Positions 235 to 1,821 are shown, counted from the stretch's first letter. The stretch: 64,000 bases of DNA from an uncultured Thermodesulfobacteriota bacterium (GCA_964348095.1 CAYGBK010000085.1:920-64919); one strand, 5' to 3'. The notes: generated by a model not told the origin, from the sequence alone. Made by a program: numbers and translations.

Positions 235-1821
235 TCAATTTCGTGGATCTCGTCTACTCCGTTTGGGTTCTGGACCAAGACCAATTCGAAGAACTATCGC
301 CCATAATACGGTATAGAGAAAGGCGTTGGCGGGCAGTTGGAGGTTTTTCTGAACAATGCTGTGGAACATCAGCCCCAAGATACCCACTAGGCCGCCCACT
401 GCTATGTATCGCCGTGGATCACCCGGGGATAGTGACCGAATCCCTGAGACGGCTTTAGAAAAGAGAAGGATGAATAGACCAATAAGGGGCAATATTCCTA
501 CTGCCCCTACCTCTGAGGCCAGTTGGAGAAAATCATTTTCTGCCTGAATATCAAGGGCAAGGATGTGAGAGGAGCGATACATGGAGAATACCTCGGTAAA
601 CGTCCCAAGGCCTGAGCCCAAGATAGGAAAATCCTTGAGTATCTCAGCGGTGTTCTCCCAAAGAATCCATCGAGACGACAGTCCTTCAGGGGTATGGAAG
701 AAACGGCTTATGACTGCATCCAGCCCAATCAACACTAACCAGAGCACGGCCAGGCCAAAAATCAGGACTGATGTTTTTGAGAACCTGCGGCTTTGATGAG
801 GATTCCTGAAGAGGAAAACGACCAGGCTGAATGAGATGAGGAGGCTCACAATTCCCCCTCTCGAGGCTGATAGAAGTAGTCCAAGGATCATCAGGATCAC
901 TCCAAACCCGAGAAGAAAATTCTTCCCGTCAAGAGACGAGAGTCGGTGACGCCACCCCATGTAATGCTTTGATTGATTTACCTCACGCGAGTATAGAAAG
1001 CCAATGCTTAAGGGGATGACCATGAGAAGATAGCCCGCGAAACAATTCCGATTAAGGAAAGTCCCTGTGACTGATGAGATCCATGCCGACCAATCCAGAT
1101 TGAAGATGTGGCGGCGGTCGCTGAAGAATTCGAACATCCCATAGAGGGACTCAAAGACTCCCACCAGAAATATAACGATAATTAGGTGCTTTGTCACCCG
1201 GTATCGATTATCCGTAAGCCTCCATTGAAGAAGAAAGATGAAAAGGCCTGAAAGGGAGATCCATTTAAGAACCTCCACCTTGGTGGCAAAAGGGTAGAAA
1301 CTGAGAGTCGTCATCAGTGACTGGTTATTGGTGATTGGTGATTGGCTACTGGTTACAGGATGGACAACTGACAGCTCACTGCGAAGGTCAAATGTTTTCG
1401 GGGAAATGATCTTCACTATCCCCTCGGGAAGGGAAACCATCTGAAAAAAGACGAAACCCAGGAACAGGGAAAGAAGGAGCACAGTTATCAGTAAATAGTT
1501 ATTGGTTATTCGTGAATAGTTACTGGTTGTTCGTGAATCGTTACTCGTAATTCGTAATTCGTTACTGCGCCTTGCTGATCCGTTGTCACTGTTTGATGAC
1601 GTGCGACTCGACATGTCGACCTTGGCATTCGCAATTGCCGATTTGTTTTCATAACGATTGGCCGATAGCCGATGACTGAGTCTCTGTGCTGCCCAGAGGA
1701 TAATGATTAGCAGAATCCCTAGTTCCATCAAGAAATAAGCCCACGGCACCTGTGAGCCGAAGGCGAGCGGCGTGAAGATGAGGAGGAGGATGAGGAGGAT
1801 CTCTATGGTTGAATCTAGCAT
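235..1821 (-). CDS. O-antigen ligase/polymerase-like (Wzy_C-type) polytopic membrane protein carrying an in-frame low-complexity insert that derives from nucleotide repeats
   Basis: 528-aa ORF with many predicted TM helices. The C-terminal two thirds resemble the O-antigen ligase family. The central segment (SNDSRTTSNYSRITNNY...) is encoded by the 14-nt periodic repeats. Confidence 0.55.
   Translation of the reverse strand: MLDSTIEILLILLLIFTPLAFGSQVPWAYFLMELGILLIIILWAAQRLSHRLSANRYENKSAIANAKVDMSSRTSSNSDNGSARRSNELRITSNDSRTTSNYSRITNNYLLITVLLLSLFLGFVFFQMVSLPEGIVKIISPKTFDLRSELSVVHPVTSSQSPITNNQSLMTTLSFYPFATKVEVLKWISLSGLFIFLLQWRLTDNRYRVTKHLIIVIFLVGVFESLYGMFEFFSDRRHIFNLDWSAWISSVTGTFLNRNCFAGYLLMVIPLSIGFLYSREVNQSKHYMGWRHRLSSLDGKNFLLGFGVILMILGLLLSASRGGIVSLLISFSLVVFLFRNPHQSRRFSKTSVLIFGLAVLWLVLIGLDAVISRFFHTPEGLSSRWILWENTAEILKDFPILGSGLGTFTEVFSMYRSSHILALDIQAENDFLQLASEVGAVGILPLIGLFILLFSKAVSGIRSLSPGDPRRYIAVGGLVGILGLMFHSIVQKNLQLPANAFLYTVLWAIVLRIGLGPEPKRSRRDPRN
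1318..1568. repeat. Two blocks (1318-1362 and 1482-1568) of 14-nt periodic TTAYTNGTNAYTNG-type repeats lying inside the ligase ORF
   Basis: Block 1: ctggttattggtgattggtgattggctactggttacagg. Block 2: tagttattggttattcgtgaatagttactggttgttcgtgaatcgttactcgtaattcgtaattcgttactg. Both have the same period and composition as the flanks of the four-helix-bundle gene. Confidence 0.55.

Follow-up and report, generated by a model that had tools for sequence, protein, structure and literature searches.

Introduction

According to Mrazek (2007), as relayed in PMC4679880 and PMC4692102, heptanucleotides are the most abundant class of long simple sequence repeats (SSRs; units of 5-11 nt) in bacteria, long SSRs are mostly intergenic and under-represented in open reading frames (ORFs), and the units of coding SSRs are usually multiples of 3. 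One described family, the direct repeats of the heptamer TAACTGA, is found in marine Beggiatoaceae, cyanobacteria and Bacteroidetes (MacGregor 2015, PMC4679880). In the orange Guaymas 'Maribeggiatoa' (BOGUAY), forward TAACTGA arrays are located mostly just upstream of start codons that lack a ribosome-binding site (RBS), and because forward repeats contain stops in all three frames they overlap ORF ends only, the in-ORF cases lying at protein termini (PMC4679880). Here we describe a 64,000-nt stretch of DNA from an uncultured Thermodesulfobacteriota bacterium (GCA_964348095.1, CAYGBK010000085.1:920-64919; referred to as the window), in which degenerate heptamer arrays are read in frame within the ORF of a 528-amino acid (aa) Wzy_C-family membrane protein (235..1821, minus strand).

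The tandem units of the window are one base off the TAACTGA unit (TAACTAA/TCACTAA), several arrays per genome are present in both systems, and the array in the 5′ leader of the Wzy_C gene also ends just before a start codon without an RBS. Forward translation gives LITDN-stop for TAACTGA, and SLITNN, RITSND and LLIT in the window. Unlike the TAACTGA repeats, however, the forward arrays of the window lie mid-protein, their stops have been mutated away in the frame that is used, and they occupy the same loops in homologues. The lineage also differs from the TAACTGA hosts, being Thermodesulfobacteriota and Syntrophales-like, and no account of heptamer repeats in Syntrophus or Syntrophales turned up when the literature was searched. 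Long SSRs, the heptamers of cyanobacteria and the GGGNATC repeats of Xanthomonas and Nostoc, as outlined in the same secondary accounts, are likewise dispersed arrays of variable copy number, mostly near gene starts or ends; they are described as under-represented in coding regions, whereas translation covers 3 of the 5 heptamer arrays of the window.

Two further systems invite comparison. SSR contingency loci in the lipooligosaccharide and capsule genes of Haemophilus, Neisseria and Campylobacter share with the window short repeats within polysaccharide ORFs and a length that is hypervariable between strains, but they have long perfect tracts and ON/OFF frameshift alleles, whereas the arrays of the window are degenerate and only in-frame variants were found. 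In Coxiella burnetii's 23S rRNA intervening sequence (IVS), the four-helix-bundle S23p ORF is directly preceded by tandem GACAGAT heptamers with strain-variable copy number (PMC4990558). Similarly, a 23S_rRNA_IVP-family gene (hereafter IVP) next to the Wzy_C gene is directly preceded by a heptamer array and forms a cassette bracketed by inverted arms; unlike the Coxiella IVS, this cassette is in an mRNA spacer rather than in 23S rRNA, and its arms are weak and missing in a related locus.

Results

Heptamer arrays are read in frame within the Wzy_C gene

Two blocks of tandem repeats lie inside the 528-aa ORF, between codons for predicted transmembrane (TM) helices:

1484..1567, minus strand: block 1, 12 NARTMAC units (84 nt), aa ~85-114 (RSNELRITSNDSRTTSNYSRITNNYLLITV), at the distal end of the TM2-TM3 loop
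1310..1358, minus strand: block 2, ~7 heptamer units, aa ~153-171 (VHPVTSSQSPITNNQSL), in the periplasmic TM3-TM4 loop

Tandem Repeats Finder identified arrays inside the ORF at 1317-1353 (period 7/14) and 1494-1567 (period 21/7/14), and a third just upstream of it at 1823-1884. A degenerate pattern spanning three units, ARTMACNARTMACNARTMAC, matched the window 25 times with no more than 2 mismatches, compared with 0.03 matches expected from 100 shuffles. All 25 matches were on the minus strand and fell into four arrays (1310-1357, 1491-1566, 1823-1884 and 15647-15687), and thus several head-to-tail 7-nt arrays of one family, NARTMAC, are dispersed in the window. Control lags of 5, 6 and 8 gave no periodic regions. 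A preliminary description of this ORF, made from its sequence, had reported in-frame blocks of 14-nt periodic repeats. The in-frame blocks and the tandem arrays are borne out, but the basic unit is 7 nt (NARTMAC on the coding strand), the 14-nt period results from alternation of TCAC and TAAC units, and block 1 is best described by a period of 21 nt. In the TAAC register, the units are TAACTAA, TCACTAA, TCACTAG, TAACGAG and similar rather than exact TAACTGA; TGATAAC was found once.

Block 1 has a 21-nt super-period, visible in the peptide as ITSNDSR/TTSNYSR/ITNNYLL, with a lag-21 identity of 0.81 compared with a lag-7 identity of 0.66, and TM3 begins within its final units (…NNYLLIT). In the 70-residue loop that holds block 1 (loop 1), significant periodicity is confined to 28-30 residues, and a search of the first half of this loop for more decayed arrays found none that was significant. 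Block 2 consists of the units CTGTAAC CAGTAGC CAATCAC CAATCAC CAATAAC CAGTCAC TGATGAC, and its junction motif, SL(I/M)TTLSF, is common to homologues.

The distribution of stop codons differs between frames. The in-ORF arrays contain no stops in the frame of the gene and 2-4 in each other sense frame: block 1 has 4 and 3 stops in its other two sense frames, and block 2 is open solely in the frame of the gene. Arrays of the NARTMAC family that are non-coding have 1-5 stops in every one of the six frames. The canonical unit begins with T and has TAA as its fourth to sixth bases; in the coding copies, wherever these would be read in frame, the first base is C or G, or TAA is replaced by TTA. This pattern is unlike that of a recent insertion whose frame was preserved by chance. 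An in-frame GTG or ATG follows each in-ORF array, and we considered internal re-initiation at these codons; they are not conserved in homologues (V/T/I/M and I/M/V at the two sites), so we take them to be chance occurrences.

The repeat tract at the 3′ end of the ORF, which the preliminary description had assigned to the same repeats, belongs to a separate family:

134..262, minus strand: nonamer tract, ~13 units of NNACSARAY

Its identity is 0.65 at lag 9 and 0.29 at lag 7. It overlaps the end of the Wzy_C ORF, taking in ~9 codons plus the stop, and is followed by three copies of TTAACC at 111-133, the two together filling the spacer up to the RBS of gmd. In one homologue (P0010), a similar C-terminal tract is read through as an ND-rich tail with a 3-residue period.

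The gene is intact and its inserts lie between predicted transmembrane helices

The ORF matches Pfam Wzy_C (PF04932) over residues 307-445 with 68 bits (cut-off 31.7). The protein collection contained 752 homologues, one of which, an NCBI record, is 100% identical; PF04932 is present in all 120 homologues listed, and a context look-up for the protein of the window itself returned nothing on record. In alignments with 35 and then 119 homologues, conservation extended from TM1 to the C-terminus, invariant residues were kept throughout, and both blocks coincided exactly with the two length-variable regions of the family (loops 1 and 2). A single frame encodes both the conserved N-terminal TM1-TM2 module and the conserved C-terminal 360 aa. 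Premature stops, frameshifts and lost conserved residues, which would be signs of a pseudogene, were not found in 235..1821, and 9 of 10 related loci that could be tested through their N- and C-terminal motifs were likewise in one frame and free of stops. On these features, the Wzy_C gene is an intact, single gene.

Repeat tracts are typical sites of assembly error, and a frame has a 1/3 chance of being kept across one insert; thus, a disrupted gene or pseudogene, a pair of genes or an assembly artefact had to be weighed. We regard these as very improbable. An identical protein is recorded at NCBI, and at 49-84 nt the arrays do not reach the length of a typical read. Each insert is flanked on both sides by conserved residues in one frame, and homologues are single ORFs whether or not they have long inserts, including distant ones with short loops (e.g. 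P0082, P0084 and P0113), which align end to end with the protein of the window. These alignments argue against two possibilities, that the ORF is really two genes and that the inserts disrupt conserved TM helices. The suggestion that the gene was recently disrupted is contradicted by the purging of stops from the used frame and by arrays shared with homologues only ~70% identical, because of which the arrays are considered old.

Topology prediction (hydropathy and the positive-inside rule) gave 12 TM helices and placed the N- and C-termini on the cytoplasmic side. Block 1 is housed in a cytoplasmic TM2-TM3 loop (46-110; 65 aa with 11 K/R), block 2 is within the predicted periplasmic TM3-TM4 loop, and a large periplasmic loop (372-439; 68 aa) precedes the C-terminal helices. 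An AlphaFold2 model built from a 120-sequence alignment had a predicted TM-score (pTM) of 0.72. Confidence (pLDDT) fell below 50 at the inserts (77-88, 95-100 and 163-173) and at three other loop segments (240-244, 247-256 and 293-303).

The best Foldseek match of the model was WaaL (7tpg_B; E 4.7e-5, probability 1.00, TM-score 0.53 on the target, 15% identity) and the same structure was found by a profile search of the PDB (7tpg, E 1.7e-8), making the WaaL ligase 7TPG the sole significant PDB relative by sequence and by structure. WaaL belongs to the GT-C_B fold class and has a conserved catalytic His and pyrophosphate-binding Arg residues in its periplasmic loop (PMC12800693). The protein of the window shares with 7TPG and the Wzy_C superfamily the 12 TM helices, a large periplasmic loop ahead of the last three helices and an invariant Arg: R384, invariant in the family, aligned with R265 of the 7tpg chain (position counted by hand in the profile alignment). 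Unlike WaaL, for which no repeat-coded loops have been described, the protein has such loops, and the HAHND motif of 7TPG aligns with IQAEND in the window and with (T)HAEND in the family. Residues 424-430 (window ~532-552) read LDIQAEND in the window and its closest homologues and (V)THAEND in most of the family. Because the two His of HAHND face H/Q426 (Q in the window) and the invariant E428 in the profile alignment, the catalytic chemistry may be different from that of WaaL. The activity of the 528-aa protein may be that of a ligase, a polymerase or another enzyme.

In the homologue P0011, the N-terminus (MKSFEDLEVWRAARE) resembles that of the four-helix-bundle IVP protein fused to Wzy_C. 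Read-through in annotation, or a leftover of the upstream cassette, is the probable source of this apparent fusion.

The same loops carry other heptamers in related bacteria

The two loops vary in length across the 120 homologues: loop 1 measures 16-71 aa, with a median of 34 and a value of 70 for the window, and loop 2 measures 9-89 aa, with a median of 19 and a value of 22 for the window. When residue identities were pooled, a 7-residue periodicity was evident in both loops (lag-7 identity of 0.16 in loop 1 and 0.24 in loop 2, compared with a background of ~0.07 at other lags). The relatives found in reference genomes are nearly all metagenome-assembled genomes of Thermodesulfobacteriota/Syntrophaceae. 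At the DNA level, the same loops of related loci contain other heptamers: AAATCCG, TTTGAGC, TTGACCT, ATGACTA, CCCATWG and CCTCAAN. Sharing of 4-mers is far more frequent between loop 1 and loop 2 of one protein than between loops of different proteins (28% compared with 11%; permutation p<0.0005). Since related loci hold differing heptamers and 4-mers are shared preferentially within a protein, both loops seem to receive the repeat family that belongs to the genome in question.

The preliminary description had raised the possibility that a repeat element was domesticated into a loop of the protein. The part of this proposal that holds is that the repeats are translated, lie between TM helices and occupy the same sites in homologues; there was no sign of an acquired function, and 'domesticated' overstates the case because the loops are conserved in neither sequence nor length and have low AlphaFold scores.

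A search of 5.8 billion proteins with (NPKSEIR)x6 returned only 21 short hypothetical ORFs, which were uninformative on carrier families. A distant, GC-rich deltaproteobacterial homologue of Wzy_C (L028, 3135-5004) has long in-frame GGTCAGA arrays before and after its core; these encode the peptide GQRSEVG/RDQRSEV, and the open frame runs on for ~480 aa downstream.

Near-identical strains diverge chiefly within the arrays

In clusters drawn at 90% identity, some proteins matched at 98-100% elsewhere and differed in loop 1 by 0-5 copies of a 10-aa unit, and other cluster members showed 9- and 15-aa loop indels. A pair of contigs, each from a different metagenome and sharing ~99% identity along 1.3 kb, was distinguished by a 45-nt in-frame indel in the AAATCCG array of loop 2 and, in the array at the annotated N-terminus/5′ leader, by a substitution at the same position of three successive units (CCAAAAT in one contig, CCGAAAT in the other). 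Elsewhere, this pair differed by only 3 single-nucleotide polymorphisms. Because near-identical strains differ mainly inside them, the arrays are mutational hot spots, and the periodic substitutions suggest concerted change within an array.

Hypervariable repeats in a surface-polysaccharide operon could also form a contingency locus, in which the heptamer arrays in the Wzy_C gene and in the CpsB gene of the same operon (see below) would act as frameshift switches of exopolysaccharide assembly: gaining or losing one or two units would turn assembly off and a compensating change would restore it. The resulting heterogeneity within a population could help, for instance, against phage. Switching of polysaccharide genes by SSRs is well documented in pathogens (PMC4692102, PMC4679880), the unit length is not a multiple of 3, the arrays are within ORFs and clustered in the operon, and most differences between near-identical strains fall in them. 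We nevertheless consider such a switch unlikely. It is unsupported because the arrays of the window are degenerate, with lag-7 identities of 0.66-0.79, at most 2-3 identical consecutive units and no long perfect tract. In addition, every intragenic length variant seen in short-read assemblies was in frame. Truncated cluster members (405, 398 and 261 aa; 90% clusters) were examined as frameshift OFF alleles and ruled out: one gene is intact and in frame, with a later start picked by the gene caller (L032), one sequence is at a contig end (P0157), one comes from a long-read contig with several fragmented genes (L029), and in L020, L021 and L023, from error-prone long-read contigs, the frameshifts are scattered outside the repeats.

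Further arrays and their operon context

The Wzy_C ORF is near the left end of an exopolysaccharide operon on the minus strand:

11107..12270, minus strand: Wza-like exporter, first in operon order
8811..11147, minus strand: Wzc-like co-polymerase/kinase, after the Wza-like exporter
minus strand, after the Wzc-like gene: TPR/CBM protein, then AAA_22 ATPase
3957..5354, minus strand: DnaJ-domain protein, after the AAA_22 ATPase
3320..3898, minus strand: DUF4124 protein, between the DnaJ-domain and CpsB genes
2437..3294, minus strand: CpsB/YwqE-type (tyrosine) phosphatase, Pfam CpsB_CapC
1880..2275, minus strand: four-helix-bundle 23S_rRNA_IVP protein (S23p/Avd-like), Pfam PF05635 with 105 bits and TIGR02436
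235..1821, minus strand: Wzy_C-family membrane protein, 528 aa, Pfam PF04932
99..1, minus strand: start of gmd, downstream of the Wzy_C ORF

Apart from the two blocks, the arrays of the NARTMAC family, with the genes that flank the most distant of them, are as follows:

1822..1884, minus strand: 5′ leader array, 9 units (TAGTCAC TAATAAC TAATCAC …), in the orientation of the in-ORF blocks
2276..2330, minus strand: degenerate array directly upstream of the IVP gene
15647..15707, minus strand (as the operon arrays): fourth NARTMAC array, between the 3′ ends of two convergent genes
14916..15647, plus strand: Tpt1/KptA
15738..16301, minus strand: Smr

In the 64 kb, three of the five periodic heptamer arrays lie in ORFs and one lies between gene ends; 1822-1884 and 2276-2330 abut start codons. 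Four of the five fall within a single 1.73-kb stretch of the operon (scan p ~4e-4 for the 64-kb window). A repeat search found no inverted pairs flanking 1310-1358 or 1484-1567, as would mark a miniature inverted-repeat transposable element, and the sole inverted arms involving arrays match them to a short array in inverse orientation on the far side of the IVP cassette (2399-2423).

The leader array has best periods of 14 and 28 nt and stops 1 nt short of the ATG, with no GGAGG-type Shine-Dalgarno sequence in between. This arrangement, reported also for most BOGUAY TAACTGA sets (PMC4679880), together with the location of all four NARTMAC arrays on the strand of the operon, would fit a cis element acting at the RNA level, in which the arrays bind a single-strand nucleic-acid-binding regulator (of the S1, cold shock protein or CsrA type, as proposed for TAACTGA), the copies inside ORFs would tune translation or the fate of the operon mRNA, and the encoded peptide is a by-product. 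A sequence-specific binding site is disfavoured, however, because different lineages use unrelated heptamers at the same sites. An Rfam scan of the whole window found no family, no in-frame start codon after the arrays is conserved in homologues, and one array lies between convergent gene ends. Taken with these points, a regulatory role of this kind is quite improbable.

A second heptamer family is translated in the neighbouring phosphatase gene:

2960..3036, minus strand: TCCRAAA array, 11 units, in frame in the CpsB gene (2437..3294) and encoding SEFRNPRSEIPNPNSKIQNPKSEIR

The TCCRAAA pattern matched 9 times compared with 0.2 expected, and the Pfam CpsB_CapC match of the gene is split into two stretches. 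The insert is 37 aa long at a place where YwqE of B. subtilis (3QY6) has a 3-residue loop, and other heptamer-coded inserts occupy one fixed site in the CpsB homologues of L002, L003, L012, L023 and L035.

The IVP gene is also present between CpsB and Wzy_C in L007, L016, L019, L020, L035 and L038, and is absent from L030, where the spacer is 16 nt. Inverted arms at 1820-1837 and 2399-2423 (18 nt, 83% complementary) bracket the cassette in the window. Excision of the cassette by RNase III as an IVS-like stem-loop was considered and rejected: its fold was no better than that of shuffled sequences (z = -1.0), and L038 has no matching arms. In L035 (1497-2301), a HEPN/nucleotidyltransferase (MNT-type) gene pair is inserted between the CpsB and IVP genes, and the CpsB-IVP spacer seems to accept insertions. 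Elsewhere in the operon, the adjacent DUF4124 and DnaJ-domain proteins resemble each other towards their C-termini (…FFxDYxExYxxxDxNGFLSxFS…RELxYxLxD…), suggesting that a domain was duplicated.

Discussion

We propose, with a probability of roughly 75%, that the blocks in the Wzy_C gene are translated, in-frame derivatives of the genome's own heptanucleotide SSR family that are tolerated in permissive loops and filtered by selection. Because the same loops are filled with repeats and variable in length in related bacteria, this position appears to be a tolerated, fast-evolving insertion site rather than a broken gene. In this operon the NARTMAC family normally fills leaders and spacers, and its arrays would arise and turn over through replication slippage and through unequal or ectopic recombination between arrays. 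Selection would then filter the products on frame and stops, leaving alleles that are in frame and free of stops. The insert peptide would be a disordered spacer without a catalytic role, and the enzyme would work as it does in relatives with short loops.

Several observations weigh against this interpretation or limit it. Slippage and recombination are mechanisms that we infer from the pattern of the repeats. A neutral spacer explains neither why four of the five arrays cluster in 1.73 kb of the operon nor why, in two neighbouring genes, the same loops are used time after time. The block lengths are not all multiples of 21 nt, and for this reason frame maintenance would involve the flanks. 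The 21-nt super-period is limited to block 1 and is not general among the coding arrays (p=0.46), which led us to reject the idea that coding arrays grow generally in 21-nt steps. Finally, two scans of metagenome contigs with exact flanks, for other alleles of the species of the window, gave 0 matches.

It is also conceivable, though doubtful, that CpsB-IVP-Wzy_C is a dedicated hypervariable locus of free-living Syntrophales-like bacteria, in which a locally acting process, either gene conversion or the seeding of repeats, would repeatedly write each genome's own heptamers into the same permissive loops of the two exopolysaccharide genes. The IVS-like four-helix-bundle cassette between these genes, itself preceded by heptamers, might be connected with this process. 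If true, this would represent contingency-type switching or programmed loop diversification outside the host-pathogen setting.

The origin and spread of heptanucleotide repeats are unexplained, and published accounts treat these repeats as essentially intergenic. At this locus, heptamers lie inside conserved genes, are read in all three phases as peptides with a 7-residue period, and are restricted to permissive loops. For annotation, the locus is a warning, given its variable starts, 'hypothetical' ORFs over arrays and contig breaks in repeats. It also provides a natural assay of insertion-tolerant loops in an enzyme of the WaaL fold and in a YwqE/CpsB-type phosphatase, and a tractable place in which to measure how such arrays originate and are homogenised.

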